Shown here: piece by piece, positions 7,416-64,000 of the stretch
Numbering within the stretch: position 1 is the first letter of the stretch
Layout: the number at the start of each line of letters is the position of its first letter
NCBI GenBank assembly: GCA_963799845.1
Contig: CAWCYI010000004.1
Location: 160,001-224,000 of the forward strand
Direction of reading: 5' to 3'
From: an uncultured Nitrososphaerota archaeon
GTDB lineage: Archaea > Thermoproteota > Nitrososphaeria > Nitrososphaerales > CADDZS01
DNA: 64,000 nt
Translations under genes and position numbers: made by a program
Notes under the pieces: model-generated
The model's input: only the letters and a program-made list of their open reading frames with translations
Database searches by the model: none
Told to the model about the DNA's origin: nothing

Positions 7416-7567
7416 GGGGTCGTCGTCCAGCTTGGTTTAGGATCTCTCTAGAGCTAAATTACCACCCTGGGGAGCTGGCAAGTTTACTTGCCGGTAACAC
7501 GGAACGGTGGCGAGGCACTTTCACCGTGCTCCACAAATCGCCGGTTCAAATCCGGCCGACCCCACCA
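7416..7567 (+). tRNA. tRNA-Pro(GGG) with three introns (7443-7459, 7473-7504, 7513-7536) and an encoded CCA
   Basis: Acceptor stem GGGGTCG/CGACCCC, D-stem GTCC/GGAT, anticodon stem CCACC/GGTGG with loop CT-GGG-GC, T-arm GCCGG-TTCAAAT-CCGGC. Removing the three inserts gives a 79-nt cloverleaf. Confidence 0.9.
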
Positions 7568-7920
7568 TTTTTACGCTGCATACATAGACCCCCTTTTTTT
7601 CGCCAAAAGTAATAGCAGGAATGGGTGGTTGTGGAAGTTTGTGCCAACGCCCTAAATCGGGCTAAATTAGTGCTAAAGAGGCGCAGGCGAGCTTTTTTCC
7701 TTTTTGTGAAAAGAAGCGAAATCGACCTTTCGGGGGTGATGGAGGGAGGGTTGAGACTTTTTCCTTTTTGAGAATCAATAGAAATTGCATCTGGTGTCGA
7801 AAATTGGTCCTGATTGATGTTGGCGCCGGCCGTTTCTCCATTTGATGTCGTTCAGCTTTTGCATGAAACAAACATGTTTATTGCTAATTGCAAGGATTGG
7901 GGAAACAATCTGGATTGAAG

Positions 7921-9358
7921 ATGGCTCTAAGCAAACAGCTGACGGAATATCTGCCACTTTGGTCCGAAAGCCCTGGCCGCGGTGGGGAGTCAGAGGATCC
8001 ACTCGGTTTTCAGCGGCAATCCGAATATTGGGCGAACAAGTTCCTCCCAGGATTGACCGTGCTCACGATTACTCCTCGTTACTACTCTTTCATTTGTTGG
8101 TGCACTGATATAATTACCAGGGAATTTGCGGATTCCAATCAATATCGAGGAGAGATAACATGGCAGGAGTTTCAAGAATCCTTTAATCGATTTGAGCGAC
8201 TGCTAGCTGATATCCGAAGCGGCGTTTCACTCGGATGAAAAACCGATAAAATGCGGCTTCATAGGGAAACGCAGGGCCCCAAGAATTTACAAAAAGATGC
8301 GAGGGTACGGAACTCTAGATTTTTCGATTTTAGATCAGCAAGACAATACCGGCTCTCTCGCCAGATACAAGACCTCGCTGATTGATTTGAACCTATTTCG
8401 GCCCGATCAAATTGGTCTTACCGATAAGGGGGCGGAACTCGCTAAGGCATTTGAAGCCCAAATCGGTCAAGCCAAAACTCGATCTATTCATTATTGCATA
8501 GAGAAAAGAAATGTGAAAAAAACTCAGTTGTGGCATATTGGTTCGAAGTTTTGCTTGTCTCAGATCTCTAATGCAGAATGTAGAGAGATCGCAAACGCAT
8601 TATTTGGAAGAAGATACGACCGCGAGGAGGCGAGGGCCAGGAGATCGACTCTTCTCGCTTTAGACAAAGACGAAGATAGCGAATACAGTTTGTTATCTCA
8701 CTGCTATTCGCGACCTCGCAAAAGTGACATTGGAAACGATCTCGGGAACGTTCAGTTTATGCAGTTCTTCTTCATCGCTTCACTTACGATTTTTAACTGC
8801 CTATTGTTGTATAAAGAGCCTAACAGTACTTTCAAGATTTCCGGCTTCGTACAAGATTTTCTCGCGCATTCTTCATTTCCTGTCGAAGAAAATCTGAAAG
8901 ATCTCATCCCGACAATCAAAGGTAAAGAAATTAGGATTTCAGGGAAGATAGCAAAATGTAATGGAAAAAAGTACCCTGAATTGTATCAAGGACTAGATCT
9001 TGCAACTAACTTAGCTCTCTTAATTGCAGGGAGGAAAAGGGAAGGCCTTTCGAAACTTGAAAATAAAAATCTAATCTGCTATAGTTTTGTAAAATTCTCG
9101 TATTTGGTATCCAGCAACCTGAGTAACGGTCTGAGAGAATTCATGCAAGCGCTAATAATAGATCTCGTCAATTGGCACATTCTTGTGTTTGACTCTAAAC
9201 AGACTCAACCGTGGATAGAGTTTGGCGATCCCGATAGATCTATTCTCGTAACTAGGTTCCAAAAAGATGAGACCTTTTTTCTTAATCTAAATCCATACAG
9301 TGTAAGAATTAATGCGGCTTTGAGCCTACTTGGAGGGTTGGGTAGGTATGCAAAGTAG
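7921..9358 (+). CDS. Hypothetical defence-associated protein (DPLG...LPGLTVLT...RYYSF N-terminal motif) with one frameshift near 8214
   Basis: Removing one C joins ORF 7888-8238 to ORF 8297-9358 through DIEAAFHSDEKPIKCGFIGKRRA; first gene of an operon with PLD and helicase. Confidence 0.65.
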
Positions 9359-11276
9359 TAGAATTATTCTCGACTCTTTGTTTGATTTTGAAGATAATCT
9401 CCAAAACGTATTGTTTCTAACTTTTACATTTGATATTCCCTTTTTCGAAACAAAAGTGCTTCCAAAGCTCGTTGAACGAGGGAAACCGAAGATCTCGGTA
9501 ATTATGGACTATGTTCAGCACACCAAATTGATTCAACAGTCGGTCCGAACGACTCCCATCTACAATATTGACCGGTGCGCAGGTCCTAATATTCTCCACG
9601 CGAAGATATTCATTCTAGGTGGAGCGGAAAAGCTTCGCGTAGTGGTCGGATCTTGCAATCTCACAAAGAATGGATTTGAGAGAAATGCCGAACTTTTCAA
9701 AACCATTGATATAGACAAGGATTCATCCGATTCTAGCTTTGCTGACTCTGTCTCGCAATTTTTGTTTGAAGTGGTGCGAAATAGAATCGGACGGATATCC
9801 AAGAGGAATATTGACGAAATCTTGATGAAACTTTCTTCGCAAAAGACCCAAGAGAATACCTCTCCAATTTTCATTATGAATTCCTATCATACGTCAGTCA
9901 TGGATCAGATTATCAAGAGAGTGGAAAAAAAGGATGTCCGATATATTCAGGTTCTGAGTCCATTCTTTGAATCAGAGGAATATGATGAAGGAATTTTCTC
10001 TTATTTCCTATCTCCAGTTTCTGTTTTCCCGAATCTGAAGTTTTTGGATGTCTTCTTTCAGAATAAGGAGCTCCAGCATAATCTTCCGGTCAAGAAGTTA
10101 GAGTCATTTCGCAGCAAAATTAGATTGTTTGATTTAGATTTTGATCGACCATTGCACGGTAAGGCTTTTGCCATATACACGTCTAGTCACGCTTTCATTT
10201 CCTACGGATCTGCAAATTTCACTACAGCGGCGTTGTATAGAAACTTGAAGGAGATGGGTAACATCGAGACAGTGATAACGTTGAAGTTACCCCTAATTAG
10301 AGGTAGAAATACCTTCGAAAAATCCATTCTCATGCTGAAGGAGAGAGTACAAATATCTCTCGAAGATGTCGAGCAACCCTTCGAATCCCAGCCCTTATCA
10401 TCCCTCGATGGAGGACAACTGATCAATGAAGCAGTATTGAGCACAGAGACGCAAAAATTAGAAATCTACATGAGTGACTTTTTCTATAATCTACCTGAAC
10501 CTTTACTAACTATTCGAATAGGTTCACAGATCATCCAGGAATTTCAATCATTAGGCAATATGGTAGTCGTAAATGATGCAGGCAGATACTTGAAGGACGT
10601 TGATGAGAAATACCATTGCGCTACGGTTGAGGTTCAGGTTGTGAGCCAAAAGGGCACTTTCCGTGATGTAGTGATGATCCAATTCTTGAATCCAGAGGAA
10701 TTTGAGTCAGATGGAACAAAGGTGACCAATGAATTTGTAACATTTCAGGAATATCTGCGCTCTCTAGACAGCATGATTCTCGGAAAACATTCAGGAAAAA
10801 TACGAGAAAAAAGCAATGATTCAAGCTCTTCATTAACGGAGAATGAAGGCTATGAGTCGGAGCTAGACGGATTCTTCAGAGATTTCTACACAGGCTACAA
10901 ATCTCTCAACTCCATTTTTGAAACATCTTACTATTCTGTTGATTGGGCGACACGAATAATGGAAATCTTCAATCTGATGAATGAGGATCTCAATCTTACG
11001 TTCCCTAAGAAATACTACTGCACCACTCAGTTATTGTCCCTTTTGATCAAGCATCTCAATGAAGAATTATCAGAGGGTTCGAAGTTGGCTAGCATCTTGG
11101 GACAGCGTTTGAGCGAACTTGATTTTTGGAATCCAATAATGATAGCGATTCAAGCTCTGAAACAATCCACTGAAACTGCTCCCGATAAAACTACAACTAA
11201 TATTTTGTCAGATCTCGAACGTAAAATCTCTGATTTGCATAGAAAATTTGATGGAGAGGCCTCAATCCTTGACTAG
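9348..11276 (+). CDS. Phospholipase D-family nuclease with two HxK motifs
   Basis: LHAKIFI...VGSCNLT and LHGKAFA...YGSANFT. Confidence 0.85.
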   Translation: MQSSRIILDSLFDFEDNLQNVLFLTFTFDIPFFETKVLPKLVERGKPKISVIMDYVQHTKLIQQSVRTTPIYNIDRCAGPNILHAKIFILGGAEKLRVVVGSCNLTKNGFERNAELFKTIDIDKDSSDSSFADSVSQFLFEVVRNRIGRISKRNIDEILMKLSSQKTQENTSPIFIMNSYHTSVMDQIIKRVEKKDVRYIQVLSPFFESEEYDEGIFSYFLSPVSVFPNLKFLDVFFQNKELQHNLPVKKLESFRSKIRLFDLDFDRPLHGKAFAIYTSSHAFISYGSANFTTAALYRNLKEMGNIETVITLKLPLIRGRNTFEKSILMLKERVQISLEDVEQPFESQPLSSLDGGQLINEAVLSTETQKLEIYMSDFFYNLPEPLLTIRIGSQIIQEFQSLGNMVVVNDAGRYLKDVDEKYHCATVEVQVVSQKGTFRDVVMIQFLNPEEFESDGTKVTNEFVTFQEYLRSLDSMILGKHSGKIREKSNDSSSSLTENEGYESELDGFFRDFYTGYKSLNSIFETSYYSVDWATRIMEIFNLMNEDLNLTFPKKYYCTTQLLSLLIKHLNEELSEGSKLASILGQRLSELDFWNPIMIAIQALKQSTETAPDKTTTNILSDLERKISDLHRKFDGEASILD

Positions 11277-13506
11277 AGACGACAATCTTCTGTCTCTTCT
11301 GAAACTCAATAGAGAGTACAAATATCAAAGAGAAACTGTGCAGGTTGTCCTTCACCGCTTCCAGAACGGATCTAAAGGAATCATCCTAGGTGACGAAGTT
11401 GGGTTGGGCAAGACCTACGAAGCTCTCTTCATAGCCTTCTTACATTTACTTTATTCTAGAAAGACTCGCAGTCCGAAGATACTAATCATTGTCCCTCCGA
11501 ATTTGAGAACGGAAAAATGGGAGAAAGAATTGATCGGAACGGGATTTGCCCGATGTATAAAGAAAACAAATGATAAGGAGATTATCAAGTTAAGCAAGAG
11601 ATTTCGAGATTCCGTCTTCGTATTGAAAAATAAGTACGAACTTTACGATGATGGATTCTCTGAAGCCTTAGATTCAGGAATCATGATATTATCTCCTTCA
11701 TTATTTTCGCCCAGAGATGATTGGACCAATGAAGACAAGCGTTTGTATAATCGCAGGTTAAATCGAATAAAACAAAACGAATGGGACATTATCATTGTCG
11801 ACGAGGCTCATAGATACTGTCGAGGGGGTGTGCATAGTGATTATGTCCTTGATGTGCTGGACCGTAGATCAAGCAAATGCAAGACAATTCTTTGCACAGC
11901 GACACCCTTTCAGCTTGAGACAAAAGAACTGCTCGAGCTATTACGGTTTATTGAGTACGATGAGGAAAAAATCGAACAAATCGGGAATTACATTGAAAAG
12001 TACAATGAACGATTTGAGGACTTGCGAAAAAATGGATTCAATGAGAAAGAGTTTCTCCAAATGCTCAAGACGAAGCAAGTCCTAGAAAAGATTCTAAGGT
12101 CGTATATCTTGAGAAATGTGAAGGATAAGAGATTCCGAATTTCTAGAGTCGATAACATTTCGGATCATTCTTCTCAATTTGACATATTCTATCTACAATT
12201 TAGAAATTTAATAGCGGATTACATGAGGAAAGGTGGAAGAACTTTTATCCCAACAATGCTACAGCTTGCGACATCCTCTTATGATGCTTTAAAGAACAGC
12301 GATAATTTCCATACAATGAAGGATTCTGTTCAGGAGGCTCTCTCTCTTGGTTACGTTGAACAAACACTTGAAACACACTCTAGTCATCCTAAGGAGAAGA
12401 GACTTTTCGAGATAATCGAGAACGAATTCAAGAGTGGGGATCCTCTTCAAAAATGGGTGATTTTTGTTAACCACCTTGATTCTGTGACGGAAATCCTCCG
12501 AAAGCTTGGAGAAGGAAGTGAAGATGAAAATCTGAACGCGATTCTTAAACTAAAGCTTGAGGAAAGGATTAACGGAATGTTAGCGAAATATGGAATCTCA
12601 CTAACTACATATCTGAGGGAATACTACTACAAAGTATTTGGCGAGAACAACGAATTCATTTACGAGAGACTGCGGCGAATATGTAGTGACGATGATATCT
12701 GGAAAGTGGAATTTCACCGATATTATGAGTCCGCGGAAGAAAAGAAAGCGCTTCCAAAGAAGCGAAAGCTAATCGATGCTTTCGTGGATGCTGCTAGAAT
12801 GAAGTTTGAAGAATCGACACTGAAGTTTGACATAATTGACCAGGTCACCAAGCAGTGTGGTACGCGTGATCAGTTGCAAGAGATCAGTAGCCGCATCGTG
12901 CAGAAGATGCTTGAATCCATCGTGCTTTCTAAAGTTCAAGAGACACTAAGCACAGTAGAAGAAGCTGATGGGTACACAAAGAGAAGAATGCGTAGGAACC
13001 TGGAAATCATGATTAGTGCCTTATATCGCAAGAACATAGTGGCGAAGCTCACCGGGGAAACTAGCAACAAAGGAGGAATAAAAGATAGCTTCAACGAACC
13101 GTACAACCCAATAATCTTACTTGTTTCGAGGGTCGGGGAAGAGGGTATTGACCTCCAAAGATACTGCAACAATGTTATCCATTACGACTTGGAGTGGAAT
13201 CCCGCTCGTATCGAACAGAGAGAAGGCCGTGTGGATCGTAAAGGTCGAATCGATCCTAATCACAAGATTGACATTCACACTTTGGTTCTTTCCGGGACAT
13301 ATGATGAAAGGATTTACCGTAAGTTCTTAGAGCGTAGGGAGATCTTTGAATTATATCTTTGCTCGGAATTCACTTCGGCGTTCGGCTTACTTGACAGCAC
13401 GGTGCCGGAAATCGATGCTGACGATAAACGCGTCATAGATCCTATTCCGGTGATTCCTATTCACAAGGCGAATATGTTGCATTTGAACTTGCGTCCACAA
13501 AACTGA
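11248..13506 (+). CDS. SNF2-like SF2 helicase
   Basis: GDEVGLGKT, VDEAH, TATPF, GEEGIDLQ and WNPARIEQREGRVDR. Confidence 0.92.
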   Translation: MMERPQSLTRDDNLLSLLKLNREYKYQRETVQVVLHRFQNGSKGIILGDEVGLGKTYEALFIAFLHLLYSRKTRSPKILIIVPPNLRTEKWEKELIGTGFARCIKKTNDKEIIKLSKRFRDSVFVLKNKYELYDDGFSEALDSGIMILSPSLFSPRDDWTNEDKRLYNRRLNRIKQNEWDIIIVDEAHRYCRGGVHSDYVLDVLDRRSSKCKTILCTATPFQLETKELLELLRFIEYDEEKIEQIGNYIEKYNERFEDLRKNGFNEKEFLQMLKTKQVLEKILRSYILRNVKDKRFRISRVDNISDHSSQFDIFYLQFRNLIADYMRKGGRTFIPTMLQLATSSYDALKNSDNFHTMKDSVQEALSLGYVEQTLETHSSHPKEKRLFEIIENEFKSGDPLQKWVIFVNHLDSVTEILRKLGEGSEDENLNAILKLKLEERINGMLAKYGISLTTYLREYYYKVFGENNEFIYERLRRICSDDDIWKVEFHRYYESAEEKKALPKKRKLIDAFVDAARMKFEESTLKFDIIDQVTKQCGTRDQLQEISSRIVQKMLESIVLSKVQETLSTVEEADGYTKRRMRRNLEIMISALYRKNIVAKLTGETSNKGGIKDSFNEPYNPIILLVSRVGEEGIDLQRYCNNVIHYDLEWNPARIEQREGRVDRKGRIDPNHKIDIHTLVLSGTYDERIYRKFLERREIFELYLCSEFTSAFGLLDSTVPEIDADDKRVIDPIPVIPIHKANMLHLNLRPQN

Positions 13507-13575: not shown

Positions 13576-14943
13576 CTAGTAAAAGCTCTGCCCTAAGTTC
13601 ATACCCTTTTCGGGCAAAAGTATACTAGGCGCAAAATCCTTGAACATTTGAGGATTTTCTGTATGAATTGGGATTGTTCGCTTTGCTAGTACTTTTTGAA
13701 CGAGAGACCTAATTTCTTCCCCCTTTGCATGTCCTGATGCGTGAATCTGATTGTAGCTAAATCCAAAATGTTCAACCCAATTCCTGATTATCCCTTCTTC
13801 TTCCTCTCCTTCTTCGTTGAACGCTTCTGAGGAGGAATGGATGTAAGCTCCGCCGATTTCGGGCTTGATATCAATCATTTCTGGAAGATGCCAAACATCG
13901 AGATGAAGGAAAATGTTTCTTTGATCCTTAGTTATTTCTTCACAAGTGAAACCATGATCCATTAGTTCTCGTTCCCAAACGAAATAGTCCTTGTCATCAT
14001 AGGTTCCAGTCTTCTTTCTCCGCAAGTATACGAAAACGTCTTTGCCCAGTTTTGGAACGATGAGATTCTTGTCCTTTTCAAGTGATTTCAGTAAAACGGC
14101 AGACTTCATTGATACGACCAATGTTCGGCCTGCCTTCTTGCACGCGGCGTGGAAGGTATTGATTCGATCAATATCGTTTCCCCTGAACGTTGAAAATACA
14201 AGTTTCTTCTTGTTTGCTTCCAAGAGATTCGTTGTCTTTTGAAATACCTGTTTCTCAGTTAGTTGCTCTTTACTATCATCTTTAGGTGAGACCCTTGTTC
14301 CTTCAGTGATCAAGCACATCGGTTTGGATTTCGTAGCCTCTTCCACAAACTCATGAGTCATGCTTCCTTTTTGTCCGTGAAACCTCAAGTCGCCTGTATA
14401 AACAATCGGTCCAGCTGAAGTGTAAATTAAGAATCCATAAGCTCCTGGAATGGAGTGGTCCACATGGATTGGAATGATTTCAACGCCGTGGATCTTTTTC
14501 TTGTCGCCAGTCCTAAATGTAATCAGTTTGTGGTCATCGAGGGGAGAGCCTCCGGATGAGCTGTACGCTTCTTGAAAGAGCGCTGTAGTTTCGCCGCAAT
14601 AAACCGGAATCTCTGGATCGACGAAACTAATTCTTCCCATGTGATCCCAGTGATAGTGGCTAAGGACTATTGCATCAATCTCCGGTTTGGAATACTTGAG
14701 ATTAGTAGTCTCCAGTTCATCTTCAGAATATAGTCCTTTGATTTTTGGCATCAAGTCAAATTCAAAATAGTCCCCGAGACCGTTGACTCCTCTCGGATCA
14801 ATTCCTGCTGAAAAGTAGCTCGCGCCATCAGAAAATCCGGTCCCGAAATCAAACAATATCTTTGCGTCTTTATCTTCTAAGAGAATCTTGTTTCCTCCGA
14901 TCTCATTTACTCCGCCAAAGAACGTTAGTCGTGGACCCAGCAA
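13576..14943 (-). CDS. MBL-fold beta-CASP hydrolase (RNase J-like)
   Basis: GGVNEIGGN, SHYHWDH, VDHSIPGA, YTGDLRFHG and IHASGH. Confidence 0.85.
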   Translation of the reverse strand: MLGPRLTFFGGVNEIGGNKILLEDKDAKILFDFGTGFSDGASYFSAGIDPRGVNGLGDYFEFDLMPKIKGLYSEDELETTNLKYSKPEIDAIVLSHYHWDHMGRISFVDPEIPVYCGETTALFQEAYSSSGGSPLDDHKLITFRTGDKKKIHGVEIIPIHVDHSIPGAYGFLIYTSAGPIVYTGDLRFHGQKGSMTHEFVEEATKSKPMCLITEGTRVSPKDDSKEQLTEKQVFQKTTNLLEANKKKLVFSTFRGNDIDRINTFHAACKKAGRTLVVSMKSAVLLKSLEKDKNLIVPKLGKDVFVYLRRKKTGTYDDKDYFVWERELMDHGFTCEEITKDQRNIFLHLDVWHLPEMIDIKPEIGGAYIHSSSEAFNEEGEEEEGIIRNWVEHFGFSYNQIHASGHAKGEEIRSLVQKVLAKRTIPIHTENPQMFKDFAPSILLPEKGMNLGQSFY

Positions 14944-15284
14944 ACCTTGTCGGAGGAAGGCCAGAAGTTAGCGTATTAAAACGCGTGAACCCCGAATTCA
15001 TATGTCGACCATCAACACTTGCTTACTTTCTCATGATTTATCGCTTCAAACATCAGTTAGTCGCTTCCGCGATTTTCACTTTATTTTTCTTCAGTAGACT
15101 CGCCATCTTTCGCAGAAGGGGGCAACCAAATAGCCATCTATTAATCCTATGGACAGTACGTCCTCTCTCTACGATTGGTCTCTTTTCCTAGAATAATTCG
15201 TAGATCGCATCCAGACTGCATTCCATCCTTTTATGCAAGAACCATGCAACCCCGAGCGGGGACCATTCAATTCCCGTGATGCAG

Positions 15285-15390
15285 TGTCATGGTTGTTTGC
15301 CTAACTGTAAGTTCTCTTGACATTTTGGCCGCAGATCTTTATCATGCTTAGTACCCATCCCGCAATGTCTTTATCGATCACGACCGACCA
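15285..15390 (-). pseudogene. Degraded paralog of the PIN-like gene at 43942-44241
   Basis: Reverse strand reads VVIDKDIAGW, then after a frameshift TKHDKDLRPKCQENLQLGKQ; compare VVIDKDILGWGSEQENELRSTYQDILQVGKH. Confidence 0.7.
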
Positions 15391-15493
15391 GTCATATTCG
15401 TTCGCCGTATCAGAAACCATTGTGAATAATAAAGTGAATCCTAGGCTTCAATTGTTTTGAGGCTTATACGCAAAATTAGAAAGTTCGAATAAG

Positions 15494-16387
15494 ATGACAG
15501 AACTGGAACGTGATCATTTGTCAGTTGCTTCCTTGTTTGACAAGATGGCGGATGAATACGACACGATTGTCGACCCCTGGTTCGATCATTTGTATGACAG
15601 ATTGAACGAGATTATTGACAAGGTTTTGGACAAACACTCTAAAAGAGATAATATGATTGCACTGGATGTCGGGAGCGGAACGGGATTCCAGTCCTTTATG
15701 TTTGCAAAGCGAGGTTATGAGACTATAGGTTTCGACATATCAAAGGGCTTGACAACTGTTGCAATTTCAAAGTCAGAAGATAATGTGGTATTGAGAAATA
15801 AATTGTCATTCTGTTTGGCTTCTGCTACTCAGATTCCCTTCAAATCCCAAAAATTCGATCTCGTCAATTGTTGTGGAAGCGTTCTAAGTTTAATCACAAA
15901 CTACGAAGTGGCACTAAGGGAAATGTGCCGAGTCCTCAAACCTGGAGGAATCATTATCCTTGAAGTTGAGCAAAAGTGGAACTTTGATGCTTTCTGGATG
16001 CTGTTAAGCAGTGTTTCTGGCGATCTTCTCGGATACGAAGGTTCATCAAGTGAATCTTTAGAGATTTTCAGAAATCCCAGGAATCAGGGCCTGGTTATCA
16101 AATGGCCCTTCACATTTCTTGATGGCTCAAAGGAAGAAATGCGACTCAGATTATTCACATACGAAGAGATTGCCGCTTCACTTTCGAATCTTGGTATTAG
16201 GGTCTGTCAGGTATTCGGCGTCCACATCTTCACTAATCTGGTTCCTTCGACAATACTTTCCGATCCAGGATCTCAAAAATGGATCAAAGTAATGAAGGGT
16301 TTAGCAAGAATAGATAGAGTGGTAGAGGGTTCAGTTCCATTTAATCACTTCGGAGCCAGTCTTGTGATTATTGGTACGAAAACATAG
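15494..16387 (+). CDS. Class I SAM-dependent methyltransferase (UbiE-like)
   Basis: LDVGSGTG, GFDIS, IPFKSQKFDLV and RVLKPGG. Confidence 0.9.
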   Translation: MTELERDHLSVASLFDKMADEYDTIVDPWFDHLYDRLNEIIDKVLDKHSKRDNMIALDVGSGTGFQSFMFAKRGYETIGFDISKGLTTVAISKSEDNVVLRNKLSFCLASATQIPFKSQKFDLVNCCGSVLSLITNYEVALREMCRVLKPGGIIILEVEQKWNFDAFWMLLSSVSGDLLGYEGSSSESLEIFRNPRNQGLVIKWPFTFLDGSKEEMRLRLFTYEEIAASLSNLGIRVCQVFGVHIFTNLVPSTILSDPGSQKWIKVMKGLARIDRVVEGSVPFNHFGASLVIIGTKT

Positions 16388-16449
16388 TAAAATAGGATTA
16401 TTGGAGCGAAAGCGAAATAAGTTTTCGATTTGTGAGATTAGATTGAGCT

Positions 16450-18376
16450 TTGTCGATAGTCGATTCTCCTGATGAAAGCGAGTCTTCAGTCGAGAAGGCT
16501 CTAGGCTGGGTCAAATCTCAACACAAACCTGGCCAATGGTTTGATACTAGAGCTGATCCTCTGGCAATATTAGCACTCCTAACTTGTAGAGAACATCCCG
16601 AATCCCCTATCATCAGAGAAGGAAAAGACAGACTTGATTGCACGTCAGGAGGATGATGGGAGTTGGTCCGAAGAAGCTTGGGACACAACATATGCCATGC
16701 GGGCTCTTGTATCTTGGGGGGTAGAAACATCATCGACTTGCCTCAAGAAGGCGACAGAATGGCTACTAAATCTCCAGGACAGACGTACAGGTAGCTGGCA
16801 CGGTGAAGTGTGGGAAACAAGACTTTGCGCTTCTCTCATTGAAAGAGATGGGTTACCCCGATGACTTTCCTCCTGTTTCTAAGGCGATAGATTGGTTAGA
16901 GGCTGCGCAATTTGATGATGGATCCTGGTTGCATGCCCCTCACACCACTTCTGTCGCTTTGTTAGCTCTTTCAAACCTAGCGAGCCAAACTAGAGAGTCA
17001 GTCGAAAAAGCTGCTAGCTGGCTCACATTTTATGGAAAAGAAGAGATATGGTCACAGGAATGTTATGCAAATGCATATGCTCCGCTCGCGCTAAACAGTG
17101 TAGGGATATCATCGGACTCGCAAGCAATCAAAAATGGGATATCATGGCTCCTTGCCAACCAGCAAGACTGTGGAAACGGTATGGGATTTTGGGCTGATGA
17201 GGAAGACACGTGCCTTGCCATCATGGCACTAGTCTCTACTTTGCAACTTAGATTCAAGGAAAAAAAAGTCATAATTCAACCAGTCACAAGCAAGTGCTCG
17301 ATCTCGATCGCCCCGAACCTTTTGGATTGGCAGGTATCTACTCCATCCCAGAGTAGACTTGAGGCAAAACAACGAGTAGATGAGGTATATTTTGGAAGAG
17401 TAACAGAAGCAATTGACAAACTTGGAGGTCTTGCAAGTCGGTCACTATCGAAATCAGATCCAAATCAGCTCACAAATCATTCAAGGAGAGCTATCGGAAT
17501 TGGTAAAAATTGGTCGATTAATTTGGAATCTTTTCATTCCAAAAGAGTTCAAAATTGCATTGCAGAGTGAGAGAACAGATCATCTTCTTCTAGAGCTGAG
17601 TGAGAATTCGATTCTTCCATCGATTCCTTGGGAAATAGCTTACGATGACAAAACACAGAGTTTCCTCTCGCTAAAGTATGCAATAGGAAGAGCGATTCTA
17701 AGGCACACACTTGGACCTCCAAGGTCAAGTCTCAAAATCAGATCTAGGCCGAGGATCCTTTTCTTATCCAATCCCACAAACGATTTGCCTGGAACAGATA
17801 TTGAAGTTCGGCAAATAATGTCGACATTACGAAATCGAGATGTTGCAGATTGTGTATTGCTCAAGAACACAGAATCAGGTTTAACTAAAGAAAGCTTCAT
17901 CCATGAGCTGGTTCATGGTGATTACGACATCGTGCATTATGCAGGGCATGCGGTTGTAGACCAAGCTGATCCATCATCTCACTACCTTCCATTTGTGGAA
18001 CGAGGAGGACAAATGACAAAACTTTATGCATTCGAAATATCGAATTTCTCAAGCTCTAAAGTACCAAGCGTAGTCTTTCTCAACGCATGTTCTTCAGCTA
18101 GACAAGACGACGTTGGATTGTCCGAAGATGCTAACAATCTGGCCTCGGCTTTCATCTCAGCTGGAATCCCATTGTTTATCGGACCTTTGTGGAGGGTTAA
18201 TGATGATGATGCCGCGTTTCTCGCAAGCAATTTTTACTTGAACGCGATTCTGGGCTTTACAATAGGAGAATCACTGAGAATTGCTCGTGATGAAGTAAAA
18301 AGAAGATACTTCAGGTGATTCTGTTTCATGGGCTTCTTTTGTCTTGTATGGGGACCCATCAACTAAACTATTTTGA
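16450..18376 (+). CDS. Prenyltransferase/squalene-cyclase QW-repeat barrel fused to a CHAT (caspase-like) peptidase; about four frameshifts (error or pseudogene)
   Basis: Repeats ARQEDDGSW, NLQDRRTGSW, AAQFDDGSW and ANQQDCG..FW; CHAT motifs IPWE, HYAGH and LNACSS; terminal WASFVLYGDP in another frame after 18318. Confidence 0.75.
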
Positions 18377-18444
18377 TTAAAGAGCCTGAACCTGATCGCT
18401 CCTTGAAATGGGATTATGATCTGAGAGCGCCCTAGGACTCCAAC

Positions 18445-24407: not shown

Positions 24408-24414
24408 ATAACAA

Positions 24415-37907: not shown

Positions 37908-37913
37908 CTCGAA

Positions 37914-38408: not shown

Positions 38409-38409
38409 C

Positions 38410-41268: not shown

Positions 41269-41280
41269 TTCGAGTCTCCA

Positions 41281-43844: not shown

Positions 43845-43941
43845 TTGTCCGTCCATGCTCGTGATACCGATGGGCTGCATGGGCATATGCCCATGACTGT
43901 TTACACCTGGAGAACGATCGCTAGAAAATTTGATCCAGTAA

Positions 43942-44241: not shown

Positions 44242-44423
44242 ATCTCGTAGACTAAATTAACAGAAAAATTAGAGGATATTAAACTGGAGTACGCAGTTTT
44301 GGTTAGTTCTCTCATGCGATTTCTCCCACCATTGTTCGAAATTAGAATCAGAGAGGGAAATTATTCCAGTACGAATCTTTCGAGTACCAAAATTTACAGC
44401 TTAGTTAGGGCCAACACCCTTTT

Positions 44424-45425: not shown

Positions 45426-45426
45426 A

Positions 45427-46628: not shown

Positions 46629-46690
46629 TGTACGGACCCGTTTGGGATTTCTAACACTGACATGGGTTTGGAAGGGGACCACTTGTTATC

Positions 46691-52513: not shown

Positions 52514-53626
52514 AAATTATTAGACTGAAAGGGCCACAGACCTAGACATTCTCATTTTTGGCCAACTTCCCTTCCTATCTCAGGTTGTATGTCTCGATTA
52601 CAGGCACCGAAGGAGATTGTTGAAGAGGCTTATAGAGAGGAGAGGGACGCAAACGTAAGCAAGAGGATATTCCTCGTTCTGAAGGTCAAGTACGAGGGTG
52701 TCCCGGCGTCGCACGTAGCAAGGGAAGTTCACCGGCACAAATCATGGACGACACCGTGGCTTAGACGTTTCGAGAAAGATGGGCTAGAAGGACTCAAGAC
52801 GATGGAAAGGAGCGGGAGACCTCCGAAGCTCGATCACAACAAGTTCATTGCGGTGAAGAGGAAGGTCGTGAAGAACGAATGCGGCTGGACCGTGAAGGAG
52901 GTCAGGGAGATGATCCGCAAGGAAGCAGACGTGGCATACACTGAGAGACACATCTACAGGTTGATGCAGAAGTGGGGAGTGAGAGCAATTGTCCCTGACA
53001 AGAGGTTACTTCACAAGGCTTCCCTCGAAGAGAGGCTCGAATTTAAAAAAGGACCGCAAGACTCCTCAGGAATATCCCGGAAGGCTTCACCGTAGCATCC
53101 GAAGACGAATCAATCTTCGTCCAGAACATAGAAACCAAAAGGGTGTGGGCGGTCAAAGGGATTCGACCGATTCGGATTGTGTCAGGCTCGCACGGCAACA
53201 CCGTGGTGTTTGGAGCGATCAGCCTGGACGGGACACAAATCTTCAGGCAGTACGAGAAATTCAATGGCGAGACATTCCTCGACTACCTGAAGAAGGTGCA
53301 CAGGAAGTTTGGATCACTCTATCTCTTCCTTGACAAAGCAAGGCAACACCACAAAACCAGGATCGTAACTGATTATTTGGGTAAGAACAGGAAGACTCTC
53401 AGAGTCAGATGGATCCCGACAGCTTCGCCAGAGTTCAACATGATGGAGGAGTGTTGGCGCGAGGGTGAGAAGGATCTCTCAAGGCTTCCAACCTTTCCGA
53501 CGTCATTGAAAGAACTGAAATCAATCCTGGCAGAATACTATCGAACGCGAAGGTTTTGCTCGCATCTTGACATGAAGAAATTCCTTCTGACCAACAGGTG
53601 TCTATGAACTTATGTCGGCCAGGTTA
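52499..53626 (+). mobile_element. IS630-family insertion sequence, copy 2, inverted relative to copy 1
   Basis: Same TIRs, TA flanks, same length and identical translated ORFs as copy 1. Confidence 0.93.
52589..53607 (+). CDS. IS630 transposase with probable -1 frameshift at 53042-53051
   Basis: The -1 frame after TTTAAAAAAG reads RTARLLRNIPEGFTVASEDESIF into the DDE domain. Confidence 0.9.
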
Positions 53627-53678
53627 GTTCTGTGTCTCTAATATTGATGTTAACCAATTTTTGATCTCACCTTGCATT

Positions 53679-55529
53679 TCATACTTCAATCTCAAACAAT
53701 CTTGAACTATCTATTCCAAAAATGTCTACAATTTTTAGAACGATGGCGTAGCGTCCACTTTTCTTATAGTCATATTCGCCAGATTTGAGACTCAACTTAG
53801 GTCTTCCGGGTGTTCGGTAGCAGGACCACAGATTCATGAATGTATCCTTCTTAAAATCGTAATCGACAGCCCAATAGTCGATCAAGTCAGACCAGTGTTT
53901 TATCTTCACATTTTGACTTACCAGTTCAGTGTTTGGTATCGCGAAGTCCAATAATTCGATATGAATCGTTCTATTCCGTACATTTGTCTTTGCTTTTATG
54001 TAAGCTAGGTCGTAGAAATTAATGTCTTCTTTTTTTGGTATATCTGCTTGGATCAATTCGTTAGGAATGACAAGAAGTCTAAGCTTAATTCCTTGCTTTC
54101 TTGCTTCAATTTTCACCAGATCATCTAATCCCATTTCCCATTCCCAACCGAGAATGTGGAGTTCTGTTTGTTTAGCATCAAGACACTCGGACAGAGCTGA
54201 ATTGACTTCATCTATTGTGACCGGGGAGTCAACGGCGCCGACATGGACTAGAGCGCCGCTCTTTCTTCCGTGAATGAAACGAAATCCAGAAATCGGCTGC
54301 GCTTTGTATAATTTCAAAATGAAAGCAAGATACTGGTAAAGCACGGTTCGATTATCTTTTGATGAAAAATTCGTACTTTGCCAAATCTGGCGTTCATATC
54401 TTCCAAGGTTCAATATTTCAAAGGGTTTACAATCCTCGATTTCCAGAAGACGTTTTCTCGTCGTATGAATTGCAAAACGACTTATATCACAACCAATCCA
54501 CCTTCTGCCTAGTTTTTCGGCAACCGCTAAAGTAGTTCCGGAGCCGGAGAAAAAATCAGCAACTATCGAGTTCTCATTTGATGCAGCCTTTATCAGTACA
54601 TTCAACAAAGCTTCGGGTTTCTGTGTAGGATAATTCAGTCTCTCTCCTGATGTAGAAGCCATAACAGGTACATCAATAACATCGTTGGCTCGTTTTCCTT
54701 CGTCCCTTGGGTAGGTTTTGCCATAGTATACTGTTCCATCGGTTCTCCTTCTTTTTATCAGAGCATATTTCTCGCCTTTTTCATCGACTTTATTATATCG
54801 CTTCATATCAGTGTCTTTGTAGTCGACAAACACATCATTCCAAATGAAGTTCTGTCCTTTGGAATACCAGAAAATATTTTCATGCGCACGCTGAAATCCC
54901 TTTTTGGTCTCTGTTCCTCTAAATCCTTTATTCCAAATAATCTCATCCAAGAAATGTTCTTTTCCAAAAATCTCGTCTAAAATTACCTTCACGTAGTGGC
55001 CGACATGGTGATCCAAGTGAACAAAAATACTACCGTTTTCCGTGAGAAATTCCCGCATTAAGGACAGTCTGTCATACATCATCTGCATATAGGAGGAAAG
55101 TCCGTTTCCCCAAGTATCGTTGTAGACTTTTAGTTCAATTGCAGAAGGACTTTTTGTTACATTCTCCTCGCCTATCCCTGTTCGAAAAGAAAAATCCGCA
55201 CCAGTTGCAAATGGCGGATCTATGTAAATTAGATCTATCTTTCCAGCATAATTCTCAAGAAGAGATGAAATGATGTACTTGTTTTCTCCCCAAATTAACT
55301 TGTTTTTCCATCCGGTTTCAAAGGATTGTCCTTGATCGCCTGTCCAAACGTCGAAAAGAGAGTGTTGGATTCCAGAACTCTTTCTTGATTCGCGATTAAC
55401 CGTGCTTTCGTTAATGGTCTCAATAATTTGTAAAGGAAGGTTAACTCGTTTGATTTCATGCAGCTTTCCAGGTTCAACAAACTTATCTGACCATACCAGC
55501 TCAGTATTCCCAATTTCCAAGTTTGTCAA
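53679..55529 (-). CDS. Type III Mod-like adenine methyltransferase 1
   Basis: YIDPPF, YPTQKPE and DFFSGSGTT; clear paralog of 50552-52513. Confidence 0.9.
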   Translation of the reverse strand: MTNLEIGNTELVWSDKFVEPGKLHEIKRVNLPLQIIETINESTVNRESRKSSGIQHSLFDVWTGDQGQSFETGWKNKLIWGENKYIISSLLENYAGKIDLIYIDPPFATGADFSFRTGIGEENVTKSPSAIELKVYNDTWGNGLSSYMQMMYDRLSLMREFLTENGSIFVHLDHHVGHYVKVILDEIFGKEHFLDEIIWNKGFRGTETKKGFQRAHENIFWYSKGQNFIWNDVFVDYKDTDMKRYNKVDEKGEKYALIKRRRTDGTVYYGKTYPRDEGKRANDVIDVPVMASTSGERLNYPTQKPEALLNVLIKAASNENSIVADFFSGSGTTLAVAEKLGRRWIGCDISRFAIHTTRKRLLEIEDCKPFEILNLGRYERQIWQSTNFSSKDNRTVLYQYLAFILKLYKAQPISGFRFIHGRKSGALVHVGAVDSPVTIDEVNSALSECLDAKQTELHILGWEWEMGLDDLVKIEARKQGIKLRLLVIPNELIQADIPKKEDINFYDLAYIKAKTNVRNRTIHIELLDFAIPNTELVSQNVKIKHWSDLIDYWAVDYDFKKDTFMNLWSCYRTPGRPKLSLKSGEYDYKKSGRYAIVLKIVDIFGIDSSRLFEIEV

Positions 55530-55530
55530 A

Positions 55531-58469
55531 CTAGTTTATTCTCTTCATCGTTCGCTTCTTGCGCCTAACAAAGCGGTATTTAATTGTGTTTTGTGAAACA
55601 CAATACATTCTGAAGTCACACTCCTTGCAAATATTTGACGCTGGAGGATTCTTTACCTGAAAATCGTTCTTCTGGATCTCACCCACAATGTTGTCAAAGT
55701 GATGACCGGCTGAAAGCACGGTATTGGGATCCACAGGAAATTCCATTAACGCATTTTGCTTGTCCTTTTCAGCTGTCCAGTAAATGTATAGTCTGTCCGG
55801 ATGTTTACCATAACGCTCTTTCAGAATATGGGCGTAGAGACAAAGTTGGTTATGATAACGCGCAATTATCGGATCGTCTTTCGGTGGTCTTCGTTGCGTT
55901 TTGAAATCTAGTATCTCTAACTTTCCATCTTCACCTCTGAGGAGATCGATTTTTCCGGTAAGAATGTAGTCGGCTTTTCAACGGATACGTCCACTTCTGT
56001 TTCAATTACCCGATGAAGTTCCTTCTTATTCTGGTGGAAGTAATTCAAAACATGCTGCAGAGCGGTCTCTCGTCTTTGTTCTGCGAGAGGTCTCATCCCA
56101 GCGGAGACAAGACTTTGGTAATTTATCGCAAACCATTGATTCTCTATGATTTCATCTGTGATTTGATCTAATTTGCCGTCTATGACTCGTTTATGAATGT
56201 CTTCGATAGTTTGATGGACTAAGATACCGAAAGTCATCGTTGCAGATCTTGACGGAGAAAACTCGTATTCCTGATAGTATTGGTATTGACGGGGACAGAC
56301 TTCGAAAACGTTAATGTGTGAAGTCAGACTGTAGGATTTCTTTGGGGCAAACGGTTTCTTTGGAGCGAATCTCAGAGATTGCAAGACCTGCGTTTCAACG
56401 TAAGGCCATTGGTCCAATCCCTCCCAGATTGGATCGAACAGCTGGTTTGGCTCAGCAGTGCTAGTCAGGACGAGTAACTTTTCAGCTCGCGAGAAAGCGA
56501 CGTAATATTGTCTCATGAAATCGAATGTTGAAATTCTATCGTCCGGCTCGAAAGGAGTGCGACGATAAAAGGATGCTAGATCTCTATCGACCTGTCTTTG
56601 GGTTCGACGAGTCTTATCGAGTGATCCAACCGCCACCGCAGTGAATTCCAATCCTTTCGATTGATGGATCGTCATTACTTGCACGTATCCTCTTGGGATT
56701 GGATTGTAGGGGTCCTCATACTCATCAATTCCGCTGTCGATCAGTAATTTGAAGAAACTAGAAAACAGCTTCTTGTTAATCCAATCTTTGTTTCGCTCCG
56801 TTACTAGGTTAATGTGATAGTAATTTTGGAACTCCGTCAGAAGTGTAGAGAAAGTAGATAAATTTCTCACCCTGTTTTCATTCTTTAAGAACGAGGCAAA
56901 AGGCTCGAAGGACATCAGATCATAAAAATAATCAACCAACGTCATGTCCAGGGTCTCACCTTTTTGTAGATTAGTGATGTCAGCGACTCTTTCTCGAATG
57001 TACCTAGCCAGTTTTGGATTTGTATCGATATACGGCCCCAATGATGAAATACATCGATTGCTAAACTGAGCTAGCGCATCGAAATTGGTTCCTATTAACT
57101 CAGGAATCTCGTTATGGAATCCAAAGATAACCGCGTAACAAGCAATAATCAGTTGAACTTCGTCATTTTCAAAATAGGCTCTTGCTCTGGGGCAGAAATA
57201 TGGGATCCCGAATTTCTCGAGTTGATCCAAGTAATGACCACTGTGTTCCAATCGTACACTGTGTAGCAAAAGAGCAACCTGACTATAATCTTCTATTATG
57301 GAATTATCCTTGAGATACTTCACCATTCTTGCAAAACGCTGTGCCTCATCATCTTGGTTTTCTCCCCAGATACAAAACACTGAAGGATACTCTGGAAAAC
57401 TGCCATTTGGATCCGGCACTATTTGTTTTGGAAACCGAAAATTTGGAGGACCGCGTGGATTAGTCCAATCGACGGAATTCATGAAGTAATTGTATCTATC
57501 AATGATCTTCGAATGTGAACGATAATTTATGTCAAGAGTTATTCTCGAACATTCAGGGAAGTGAGTCTGGAATTCGAGGATGTTTCTGACCGTTGCCCCT
57601 CGGAAGCGGTAAAGCGATTGATCCTCGTCACCCACAATGCAGATATTATTTTCTGGTTCTACTAATGCGAAGAGAATTTGTTCTTGGATGTAATTAGTGT
57701 CTTGATATTCATCCACCATTATGAATTTGATATGTTGTCTTATTCTCTTCTTTATCTCATCGCGGCTCACGAGTTGAAAGAAGATTTTTTGCAAATGAGC
57801 AAAATCTACTTTGTTGAGCTGGAACAGTTGTGATTCATAGTTTTCATAGGCAGTTCCAAGACGTGACAGGAATTCGTTCGGCGAATTGCGTAGTTTAGTA
57901 ACGTCGATTAATTCTTCGGTTATCTTGTCGAAGTATGGAAGTAGCCCTCTGATTGTTGTCCATTTGTACTTCCACTTTCCAAAATACTCCTCCGAGATCT
58001 TCATTGATTCTGGAATAGTTTCATCAAATCGGTCGTTGAGAAAGAGTTCTTGAGTGAGATCATCGAGAGTTTCGTAGTTCTTTTTCAGTGGAGAGTACTC
58101 AATGAACCTACGAATGTATTCGTCGCAAATTGAGTGTAATGTTCCTACCTTCATTTCATAAAGAGGTCCTTTGTAGTCGAAGATCTTAGCAGACTGATAC
58201 AACCTGTCTCTTAGCTCAAATGCGGCCTTCTCTGTGAAAGTCGTAACTACGATCTCCGCAGGTTGAGCTCTTCCTGTAAGAAGGAGAAAAAACGCTCTCA
58301 ATACGAGAACGAGAGTCTTCCCAGAACCCGGTCCGGCAATTATCTGTACAGGTCCATTTACTGTTTGAATCGCTTGAAGTTGACCCTCATTAAGACTCGA
58401 GAAATGCTCCTTGATAATCCGGATGGCTTGCTCATCACTGAGAAAAGGAGCACTTTCCGAGAGTTGCAT
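55531..58469 (-). CDS. UvrD/PcrA-like helicase fused to a PD-(D/E)xK (AddB/Cas4-like) nuclease; one frameshift near 55970
   Basis: AGPGSGKT, VDEYQD, GDEDQSLYRFRGA, TIHQSKGLEF and YVAFSRA; the shifted frame reads GKIDLL...LDFKT...QLCLY...CKECDFRMYC. Confidence 0.88.
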
Positions 58470-62435: not shown

Positions 62436-63566
62436 ATGAATTCAACTGATTTGAGTTCTCCTTTCCAGGACTTGCCAGAAGCACTAGTCAATGACATGCT
62501 ATCGTATCATAAAGCTATAGGACGACAACTATCTGGGTCATTCGAGAAAATTCAGCACTCAAGGACTGACATAAGGAATTCACTCGATTCCTTTGGTCTT
62601 TTGAAGCATGATAGCGAGATAATCACATCATACAAGAATCCGACAACATGTGGTATCGATGGTGCGTTTGCAATCGAGAGACTGCTCTCAACTGATATTG
62701 CCGCAATGGCTGGAATAGCCGTTGAAGGTCTGACGCCTCCCACAGAGAAAAGATATTGGCCAGCGCCGCGTCATCGATCTAAAATAATACCGTGCAATCA
62801 TAACGAGGCCACATCTTGGGTAGTTAGAGCAATTATGATGGCGATGGAATTGGAACTCGCGGTGGAAGCTCCCCATGATGTTGTGTTTCTTGACGGCTCG
62901 CTGGCGACACCTCTGATACATTTCAATCAGGCATTCAGCCGGATAAACGAGGCGACAAGTGATCTATCGGCTATCTTGTTAGATAGAATAGGAGGAGCAC
63001 TAGATGCCTATAAGAAAATCCTCTCTTCATCAAGAAGTGACAAAATCTTTGTCGGTGTTCCAAAGTACACTGCCAGGAACGAAATTGCAACAAAGCTTGG
63101 ACTTGCAGGACACGAGGACAGGTCGTTGCTCTCCTTCGTTCTCCATGGAGGCGAAATGATAGGACCCTGCGCTATGCTACAATCCTCGGACTCTTGGCAT
63201 TTTGTTAGATTGCCTGACAACCTGATTGAATTGGGACGTGAACTAGTTTCCATGGTTAAGAATCTGAATATAATATACTACAGGCCATACGAATACTTTC
63301 CAACCCTTCGCGTCGAAGTCGCCTCTTCGATATCCAGCAATCAAAGCCGACTATCAATTCTCCTCGAATCTCTAAAATTACAATGTGGCTCCCCGGCGAT
63401 TATGGAACCGTATCCTTTGTACATGGCAGATAGAATGGTTAAGCACCTGGGAACTGCTCTTCCTGCATTGCGCAGGGCAACCACGCAGGAAATAGCGGCT
63501 TCGAATGAAGACACGGGTAGTGTTTACCTCGCCATGCACGGTTACAGAACCGACTCTGGAGCGTAG
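62436..63566 (+). CDS. NurA-domain nuclease
   Basis: CGIDGA, ELELA, VFLDGS, GVPK and EPYPLYMADRMVK. Confidence 0.85.
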   Translation: MNSTDLSSPFQDLPEALVNDMLSYHKAIGRQLSGSFEKIQHSRTDIRNSLDSFGLLKHDSEIITSYKNPTTCGIDGAFAIERLLSTDIAAMAGIAVEGLTPPTEKRYWPAPRHRSKIIPCNHNEATSWVVRAIMMAMELELAVEAPHDVVFLDGSLATPLIHFNQAFSRINEATSDLSAILLDRIGGALDAYKKILSSSRSDKIFVGVPKYTARNEIATKLGLAGHEDRSLLSFVLHGGEMIGPCAMLQSSDSWHFVRLPDNLIELGRELVSMVKNLNIIYYRPYEYFPTLRVEVASSISSNQSRLSILLESLKLQCGSPAIMEPYPLYMADRMVKHLGTALPALRRATTQEIAASNEDTGSVYLAMHGYRTDSGA

Positions 63567-63571
63567 CCGCT

Positions 63572-64000
63572 ATGGAAGAAGAAATGAAGATCTCCTTCGA
63601 CCGCGCCGAAAAGATAGGTGTTGTAGGATCTCCTTCTTCTACTCATAGTTTAGTGATAGATATTCTTGGAACTGCGGTGGATAGGAAACTTGTCGGGTCC
63701 CTTAGCATTTTCAACTACATTCAAGATGGAATAGAGCACTATGCCTTAGGGCAGATAACCGAGCTTTCAATGCGCAACGTTTGGAGCGAAGACCCGACCA
63801 TGCGCGGGTTAATTCGACAAAAGGGCAGAGTTGATCCGATAACGGGTCGACAAGACACTCACACGGCGAAGATGTTTGTCAGCTCTGTTTTCGGTAAAAA
63901 TTCCTCGCACTTTGAGCCAAGTATGTTAGGAACGGTGCCCTCCACCGGCACTTTCGTGAAACTAGTAGATCAGAAAGTTATGCATGATCTTCTTAGTGGA
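63572..64000 (+). CDS. HerA-like ATPase, N-terminal HAS barrel; truncated by the window end
   Basis: Open frame MEEEMK...IGVVGSPS...ALGQIT...TVPSTGTFV directly after NurA. Confidence 0.75.
   Translation, partial: MEEEMKISFDRAEKIGVVGSPSSTHSLVIDILGTAVDRKLVGSLSIFNYIQDGIEHYALGQITELSMRNVWSEDPTMRGLIRQKGRVDPITGRQDTHTAKMFVSSVFGKNSSHFEPSMLGTVPSTGTFVKLVDQKVMHDLLSG

Follow-up and report, generated by a model that had tools for sequence, protein, structure and literature searches.

What kind of mobile element fills more than 56 kb beside a tRNA gene when, apart from insertion sequences (IS) of the IS630 type, its only integrase-like enzyme is a solitary Cas1? This question is raised by a 64,000-nt stretch of DNA from an uncultured Nitrososphaerota archaeon, referred to below as the window. 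The window corresponds to positions 160,001-224,000 of contig C4 (2.14 Mb) of G000, a metagenome-assembled genome (MAG) of 4.6 Mb in 9 contigs. A model's reading of the window from its letters alone (the sequence-only reading) had proposed a giant, defence-laden casposon integrated at tRNA-Pro. The analysis described here leads to a similar picture. The element, called casposon A, is with high probability a genuine, casposase-delimited casposon of 66,011 bp that was integrated at the 3' end of a tRNA-Pro(GGG) gene by its own Cas1-family casposase. A second and smaller casposon, casposon B, lies directly behind it. Loci L001, L003 and L085 supplied the sequence past the end of the window, and positions above 64000 are extended coordinates, that is, the C4 position minus 160000 (L001 9600-14771 corresponds to extended 73600-78771).

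Ends of casposon A

Casposon A shows all four structural hallmarks of a casposon, namely a non-CRISPR Cas1, a family B DNA polymerase (PolB), terminal inverted repeats (TIRs) and a target site duplication (TSD) of 14-15 bp. The sequence-only reading placed the TSD, CCCACCATTTTTAC, at 7561-7574 and the start of the left TIR, GCTGCATACATAGACCCCC, at 7575, and both positions hold. It further predicted that a right end consisting of GGGGGTCTATGTATGCAGC and then CCCACCATTTTTAC would lie downstream of the window, and this was found letter for letter at C4 233567-233599. When 7401-7640 was compared by blastn-short with the 4.6-Mb genome, 7575-7617 matched in inverted orientation at C4 233585-233542 (95.5% over 44, E 6e-11). 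Because an inverted right end and an exact second TSD were found, A is taken to extend from 7575 to 73585. The earlier estimate of >56 kb stands in this sense and is corrected to 66.0 kb; the tandem partner B lay outside the window on which that estimate was based.

The TIRs are near-perfect for 44 bp, and the likeness persists with indels to ~230 bp (~7800 on the left side). By blastn the two ends of A are 72% identical over 225 (E 1e-26), and the subterminal alignment score was 155 compared with 13 +/- 5 (maximum 31) in 200 shuffles. These lengths fall within the range of 25-602 bp quoted for casposon TIRs (PMC9939771; here and below, published elements are cited from excerpts of the papers). 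The terminal 19-mer, with up to three mismatches allowed, has a single occurrence in the window (0.00 expected from 100 shuffles), and only two copies of it are present in the genome. The junction is also a boundary in base composition: the GC (guanine plus cytosine) content is 49.6% in the left flank vs 43.2% in A, and the drop coincides with the junction. At both junctions, tRNA/A and A/B, contigs of run X1 read through with 0 differences.

The island is bounded neither by a tyrosine integrase nor by a right end made of a tRNA repeat, and no TIR/TSD pair closely flanks the 33-46 kb core, around which only chance-level repeats were present; the sequence-only reading had named either finding as one that would speak against it.

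A tRNA-Pro(GGG) gene with three introns

Which gene provided the integration site? By eye, a 152-nt stretch at 7416-7567 shows an acceptor stem, a D arm, a T arm, a discriminator A and an encoded CCA. From the unspliced window, no tRNA was reported by ARAGORN (with or without anticodon-loop introns) or by Rfam (gathering and E-value thresholds). Cutting out three introns by script (7445-7461, 7473-7504 and ~7511-7534) left a clean cloverleaf of 79 nt, which ARAGORN called tRNA-Pro(ggg). The tRNA ends at 7564 (discriminator) or at 7567 (CCA), in keeping with the earlier claim that the island starts at the 3' end of tRNA-Pro. A single-intron model was rejected, as removal of any one stretch of 40-99 nt gave 213 incoherent calls, mostly for selenocysteine (SeC). 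The three-intron model alone worked, in a search that was confined to the neighbourhood of the starting hypothesis and whose tally is biased. Independent support comes from comparison: in the orthologue of G007 (L032, same family), introns 2 and 3 are absent and the predicted anticodon stem-loop and variable loop are contiguous. The other tRNA orthologues differ mainly within the proposed introns. Automatic tRNA finders overlook this gene because of its three introns, and multi-intron tRNA genes conceal integration sites from standard island-finding tools that are based on tRNA calls. Across the genome, ARAGORN called 35 tRNAs, most of them intron-bearing, and no tRNA-Pro.

The TSD can also be read as 15 bp, the preceding C being ambiguous. 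In that case 5 bp are shared with the tRNA, and the T arm is covered by the preceding 18 bp, CGGTTCAAATCCGGCCGA. For Aciduliprofundum boonei, the TSD is likewise given as 15 bp with 5 bp inside the 3' end of tRNA-Pro, and the adjacent 18-bp T-loop segment is essential (PMC5137440). Among tRNA 3' regions from 7 orthologous or similar loci of relatives, the tail CCCACCATTTT was present in 3 (G001, G002 and G006, all of the same genus). A Cas1 fragment lies ~570 bp from the tRNA end in G001, a genome flagged as unpublished for which the depositors' permission is required before publication.

A partial tRNA-Pro 3' copy followed by CCCACCATTT was observed at C6 1113945-1113980. No casposon ends or features were found near this copy.

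Casposase and polymerase

The pairing of a PolB with a solo Cas1, on which the casposon proposal was founded, was borne out by Pfam. The closest solved relative of the Cas1 of A is 6OPM (6.8e-46, query residues 1-379 vs chain residues 18-403). CRISPR Cas1 structures come next, at 1.9e-17, with only the catalytic part covered. 6OPM is the complex of the Methanosarcina mazei casposase with DNA, and the C-terminal helix-turn-helix (HTH) of that enzyme is essential for integration (PMC6977970). Judged by the 6OPM alignment, the casposase of A carries this C-terminal HTH-type region, and the block is kept in a 15-sequence alignment (T363, Y380). E157, H229 and D241, which we take to be the catalytic Glu-His-Asp of Cas1, are invariant across 15 casposase homologues.

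After filtering, A retained 75 open reading frames (ORFs) of at least 60 aa, 46 of them of at least 150 aa. The Pfam scan covered all of these 46 and 54 ORFs in total. No further Cas family was detected among the 54, ORFs <100 aa (the size of Cas2) being mostly outside the scan, and no CRISPR repeat array was found within 7001-80000. No tyrosine or serine recombinase was found among the 46 longer ORFs, where the transposase and integrase matches consisted of Cas1 and the two IS630 copies. The statement that Cas1 is the sole integrase-like enzyme besides IS630 is therefore upheld for these ORFs.

The polymerase is of the protein-primed type (pPolB). In the Atlas feature hits of this PolB, 22 of 30 fell in the PF03175 set, and motifs A, B and C are legible by eye in the translation. 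The match to NCBIfam was sub-threshold only, and no homologue was found with this query in 40 order-level relatives. Polymerases 27-28% identical over ~657 aa are encoded directly upstream of Cas1 in two Thermoplasmata MAG loci (L063 and L065). Eight small ORFs on the same strand precede PolB and match neither Pfam nor NCBIfam; further small ORFs lie between PolB and Cas1, and three ORFs without assignment follow Cas1.

The sequence-only reading also gave A its own TFB and a regulatory switch. A TFB homologue is indeed present; the switch is a putative one, suggested by the divergent HTH-CBS/TFB gene pair.

Two repeats were observed in the core operon. A 53-nt direct repeat (79% identical) lies at 42615-42667 and 44362-44414, immediately 5' of two genes, that of the casposase and the ORF that follows it, and a 23-35-nt motif occurs 3-4 times in intergenic gaps at 35810-37158. 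Both may be shared promoters or operator sites.

A truncated third Cas1 was noted at C6 1748317-1748904, at a contig end and beside an IS630. It is 41% identical to the C-terminal half of the Cas1 of A and contains one TGA.

Casposon B and the order of arrival

Casposon B begins directly after TSD copy 2, giving a tandem array A-B with three TSD copies. Its Cas1 (PF01867, 1.7e-44) is 36% identical to that of A. B is too small to hold a PolB, and its other ORFs are without assignment. The C-terminal part of its Cas1 lies in another reading frame. The base at L001 13413 is missing in X1 and X2 contigs, and dropping it restores the frame; an assembly error is the probable cause of the break. The TIRs of A and B are unrelated, and both elements used the same site and the same duplication, so that B lends independent support to the casposon reading of A. 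An X2 contig joins the left interior of B to the right flank via the 127-bp repeat, a junction in which an inversion and an assembly-graph path are indistinguishable.

Which of the two came first? TSD copies 1 and 2 are identical and end in ...TAC, and copy 3 ends in ...TAG. B appears to have arrived first and A second, because the first two copies end in C and the third in G; the first base of B is a C, which A would have duplicated. The opposite order would require an extra mutation. The published model likewise expects a newcomer to insert between the tRNA and the casposon already present (PMC5137440).

Behind the array lie, in this order, an ORF without assignment, an Opp/Dpp operon, a degenerate tRNA-Pro 3' copy and nitrile hydratase genes. 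The degenerate copy, which like B was out of sight for the sequence-only reading, is located 13.7 kb past the right end of A and delimits neither A nor B. An earlier integration at this tRNA may have left it behind.

Proposed route of integration

How would A have entered this site? By analogy with the enzymes of A. boonei and M. mazei, the casposase would bind the 3'-OH ends of the TIRs, and the T-arm sequence just upstream would serve as a leader-like guide. Two strand transfers 14-15 bp apart, one at the tRNA/TSD border and the other at the distal TSD border, would be followed by gap repair, by which CCCACCATTTTTAC is duplicated and the tRNA stays whole. Mobility and replication would reside in the core of ~11 kb at the centre (small ORFs, protein-primed-type PolB and casposase), presumably with protein-primed replication. 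The arms of ~26 and ~27 kb would be cargo, mostly anti-virus systems together with the TFB and the HTH-CBS regulator. In this scheme the smaller, PolB-less B used the site earlier and A then inserted on the tRNA side, which would yield the tandem with its three TSDs, and two host IS630 copies would have entered A afterwards.

Cargo of casposon A

The coordinates of all features are collected in Table 1. Pfam and defence-family matches place defence modules on both arms, as had been claimed. The PLD/SNF2 module of the left arm is described as Azaca/DISARM-like. The IS630 family has 18 copies in the genome at >=99.8% across C1, C4 and C6, so the two copies in A are host IS insertions into A. The ends of these two copies overlap the ends of the Res and Mod ORFs; the IS630 copies may have disrupted the Res-Mod genes or formed a composite unit with them. 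The excerpt of PMC6563490 counts TFB and HTH-CBS regulators among the genes found most often in integrated elements of Thaumarchaeota, and the cargo of A thus resembles that shared pool.

Table 1. Features of the casposon array and its surroundings (positions above 64000 are extended coordinates).
Feature	Position	Strand	Evidence or remark
tRNA-Pro(GGG) gene, three introns, encoded CCA	7416-7567	+	ARAGORN after intron removal; orthologues
TSD copy 1, CCCACCATTTTTAC, 14 bp	7561-7574	.	exact direct repeat
Casposon A, part in window	7575-64000	.	continues past window to 73585
Left TIR of A, begins GCTGCATACATAGACCCCC	7575-7618	+	blastn-short, gapped alignment, shuffles
Three-gene module: 353-aa protein without assignment, PLD-family nuclease (ZacB/DrmC-like), SNF2 helicase (ZacC/DrmD-like)	8297-13506	+	ZacB 6e-15, ZacC 6e-37
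MBL/beta-CASP-type hydrolase, SAM methyltransferase, CHAT protease pair, STAND-type ATPase with TrmB/MarR HTH domains	13576-20766	.	Pfam
GHKL (HATPase_c_3) ATPase, ORF without assignment, HNH endonuclease	21799-25392	+	Pfam
SMC-like ATPase (Lamassu LmuB-like) and small zinc-ribbon partner	28358-31335	-	LmuB 2.5e-50
TFB (TFIIB) homologue and XRE-HTH + CBS regulator, divergent from core operon	33634-35243	-	Pfam
One-directional core module, ~10.8 kb: small ORFs, pPolB, casposase, three more ORFs	35324-46151	+	ORF map, Pfam
Protein-primed-type family B DNA polymerase, 711 aa	39133-41268	+	PF03175, 3.3e-10
Casposase (Cas1 with C-terminal extension), 388 aa	42678-43844	+	PF01867, 1.9e-44
IS630 copy 1, 1,132 bp	46690-47821	-	DDE_3; host IS family
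Type III restriction helicase (Res) and type III methyltransferase (Mod)	47816-52513	-	between the two IS630 copies
IS630 copy 2	52496-53627	+	DDE_3; inverted vs copy 1
Second type III methyltransferase; UvrD helicase fused to PD-(D/E)XK nuclease (GajB-like)	53679-58469	-
Weak NurA-like ORF (62436-63566) and HerA ATPase gene from 63572	62436-64000 (in window)	+	HerA gene ends at 65305
Holliday-junction-resolvase-like endonuclease	65466-65903	-
ORFs without assignment	65916-69427	-
SLATT protein	69877-70488	-
TIR-domain protein (the protein domain, not the repeat)	70540-71760	-
GTPase-like protein	71796-72797	-
Right TIR of A	73542-73585	inverted	blastn-short; C4 233585 outermost
TSD copy 2, CCCACCATTTTTAC	73586-73599	.	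exact copy of 7561-7574
Casposon B, 5.17 kb, perfect 127-bp TIRs, no PolB	73600-78771		own Cas1 at 76433-77546
TSD copy 3, CCCACCATTTTTAG (= CCCACCATTTTTA+G)	78772-78785
Opp/Dpp ABC-transporter operon	81127-87004
Degenerate tRNA-Pro 3' copy	87240-87278 (C4 247240-247278)	direct	87% over 39 nt; without CCA, without TSD

Relatives and population data

A single-protein scan of genome contigs gave no casposase relatives, and an alignment-based scan gave 43 casposase loci. The nearest named loci, at 30-39% identity, are in MAGs titled Nitrososphaerales, Micrarchaeota, Thermoplasmatota and Nitrosarchaeum. Around Cas1, TIR and TSD pairs were found in 2 of the 21 loci examined, an inverted pair without a TSD in one and no pair in 18; many of the 21 are cut by contig ends, so no size distribution could be obtained. 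The first of the two delimited relatives (L045 3102-13854, a Micrarchaeota MAG) has a 14-bp TSD, a casposase 34% identical to that of A and a PolB of 918 aa that matches PF00136. It is 10,753 bp long. The second (L054 4344-14200) spans 9,857 bp and has a 12-bp TSD.

With up to two mismatches, the terminal 19-mer of A had 3 matches in 40 relatives vs ~1 expected by chance by our own arithmetic. A 19-mer match in a metagenome (L084) was rejected as a chance hit, since it was a single contig with no other similarity to the genome.

At L086 (G004:C60:12864-12882, same genus), GCTGCATACGTAGACCCCT is followed by a T-run and resembles the terminal 25 nt of A. No tRNA adjoins the site, and the contig ends 857 bp away. 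A related element may terminate here, or the resemblance may be due to chance.

Population data came from Logan contigs of three runs, all from one study with the label soil metagenome (word shares 0.85, 0.39 and 0.09). The three runs hold the region and may include the source sample. Their contigs are consistently one base short of the reference at L001 9878, 11955 and 13413. Loose ends at L001 9542 and 9585 were rejected, as they arise where the left junction maps to the right TIR, and a loose end at L001 14813 had no match in the genome.

Did A arrive at its present size?

Several observations count against A as a casposon of this size. The reported upper casposon size of ~20 kb is exceeded 3.3-fold by A, and its two delimitable relatives measure 10.75 and 9.86 kb. 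Its core is central, 28 kb and 27 kb from the ends, a layout that also fits later growth, and the two IS630 copies mean that A has changed in place. Beyond 44 bp its TIRs are imperfect. The N-terminal exonuclease motifs of its PolB look degenerate by eye, and this PolB is without any PDB match by sequence. The reference contains single-base indel errors that can split ORFs, and the integrity of genes is therefore uncertain. The sequence-only reading had proposed a search for reads of the empty site or the excised form; neither these nor a second copy of A were found in the Logan contigs of the three runs. Synteny of the flank to the right of B was not conserved in 20 relatives, which prevented reconstruction of the empty site.

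One model built on these observations is growth in place. In this model, a normal casposon of ~11-15 kb sat at tRNA-Pro and other DNA was inserted into it later, so that the 66-kb unit never transposed in one piece, and its size or decay may by now prevent it from moving. The compact central core of 10.8 kb would be the original element, and its size would agree with delimitable relatives of ~10 kb and with the 8-20 kb of casposons in papers (PMC9939771, PMC6563490). Growth of this kind would also fit two copies of an 18-copy host IS family inside A and for the lack of both a second copy and an empty site. However, the arms are without insertion machinery or scars besides IS630, no recombinase is encoded by the 46 ORFs of at least 150 aa, and neither internal TIR-like sequences nor long repeats are present. 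The left arm, core and right arm have similar GC contents (42.2%, 45.2% and 43.3%). Timing also argues against growth in place. A lies on the tRNA side of B and is the later arrival under the published model, and the identical 127-bp TIRs of B leave little time for a stepwise gain of ~50 kb. Growth in place is therefore considered rather unlikely, although it is the strongest of the alternatives.

The same timing bears on the size at which casposon A came. Since the 127-bp repeats of B are still identical, the arrival of A looks recent, and a recent arrival suggests that A, apart from the two IS630 copies, was then already about as large as it is today. This argument is indirect, and whether the 66 kb moves as a single unit is, in our judgement, evenly balanced.

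A second model takes the degenerate direct tRNA 3' copy (87% over 39 nt) as the far end of an old, integrase-mediated island of ~80 kb, running from the tRNA to 87240-87278 with the casposons as passengers. The GC content between B and this copy is 45.3% vs 49.4% further on, as such an island might show. No integrase was found in A or among the tested ORFs between B and the copy, however, and the copy has neither the CCA nor the TSD sequence. TIR/TSD pairs bound A and B exactly. At most, an older layer would lie beneath the casposon array, and a recombinase-type island as the explanation of A is very improbable. Still less credible is a mis-join of the MAG (completeness 86.7%, contamination 4.9%) as the source of the apparent 66-kb unit: single-base indel errors are present and an X2 contig links the left interior of B to the right flank through the 127-bp repeat, but matching TIRs and exact TSDs at both ends within a 2.1-Mb contig cannot come from a mis-join, and X1 contigs cross both junctions without a difference.

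Implications

If A transposed as a unit of >60 kb, casposons would not be limited to ~20 kb, and A would bring a Cas1 integrase and its leader-like target together with many innate immunity genes in one mobile element, its mixture of family features marking a new lineage. We give this broader claim an even chance. If true, Cas1-driven transposition would be a vehicle for whole defence islands. At 66 kb and with the full set of hallmarks, A raises the known size range of casposons (8-20 kb in papers) more than threefold, and it ties a Cas1-type integrase to a large, many-system defence island in an archaeon. The combination of a Cas1 integrase and its leader-like target with innate immunity genes has been proposed for the origin of CRISPR-Cas. 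A is a natural example in which Cas1, a leader-like target and innate defence genes occur together, and it bears on the question of how effectors came to be joined to the CRISPR adaptation module. Two casposases with different TIRs at one tRNA-Pro site are also a ready system for end and target specificity.

Comparison with known elements

In bacteria, pipolins, integrative elements and Tn7-like transposons are known carriers of defence islands. Pipolins integrate by tyrosine recombinases at direct repeats and, to our knowledge, use no Cas1, TIR or TSD. Like A, the PolB-encoding pipolins are an integrative platform for many defence systems; unlike A, they are bacterial and have a primer-independent PolB. 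They are described as commonly integrative elements (PMC11551731).

The original casposon islands were ~8-20 kb (PMC9939771). In the excerpt of PMC6563490, thaumarchaeal casposons are all <20 kb and other integrated elements measure 98-140 kb. None of 40 listed titles, out of 62 papers from 2021 onward that contain the word casposon, is about a giant or defence-island casposon, and a phrase search gave no paper on giant or PolB-less casposons; a larger element may stand in subscription papers or survey supplements.

AciBoo-C1, a family 2 casposon of A. boonei, shares with A the 3' end of tRNA-Pro as the target, a TSD of 14-15 bp, an overlap of 4-5 bp and a T arm upstream. Both have TIRs and a solo Cas1 beside PolB, and tandem arrays are predicted by the published model (PMC5137440). 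The differences, drawn from a comparison of descriptions and not of sequences, are the size of A (66 kb against casposons of ~8-20 kb), its cargo of >50 kb and its PolB, which matches PF03175 and not PF00136. NitNCS1-C1, a family 2 casposon of Ca. Nitrosotalea okcheonensis, likewise targets tRNA-Pro, but its description includes the gene set conserved in family 2, together with a PolB of that family (PMC6563490).

Methanosarcina casposons include the best solved relative of the A casposase (6OPM). They also occur as tandem copies with one shared TSD and have TIRs of 31-59 or 225 bp (PMC4779613). Their targets, in contrast, are tRNA-Leu or intergenic, and their tandem partners are close relatives (PMC4779613), whereas the casposases of A and B are only 36% identical and the TIRs unrelated.

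Family 1 thaumarchaeal casposons (NitAR1-C1, NitNF5-C1/C2 and others) resemble A in a protein-primed-type PolB with small ORFs directly upstream, in accessory genes of nuclease and defence type and in a tandem pair in one genome (PMC6563490, PMC8464041). As described in these excerpts, their casposases are without the C-terminal HTH and mostly target ef-2, whereas the casposase of A aligns to the HTH-bearing 6OPM to residue 379 and the target is a tRNA. Where does this leave A between the two families? It has the HTH casposase and the tRNA 3' end target of family 2 but a PolB that is not of the family 2 type; conversely, it has the pPolB-type match of family 1 but neither the HTH-less casposase nor the ef-2 target. 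By these limited tests, A appears to join a family 2-like casposase and target with a family 1-type polymerase, and it departs from each family in one defining feature.

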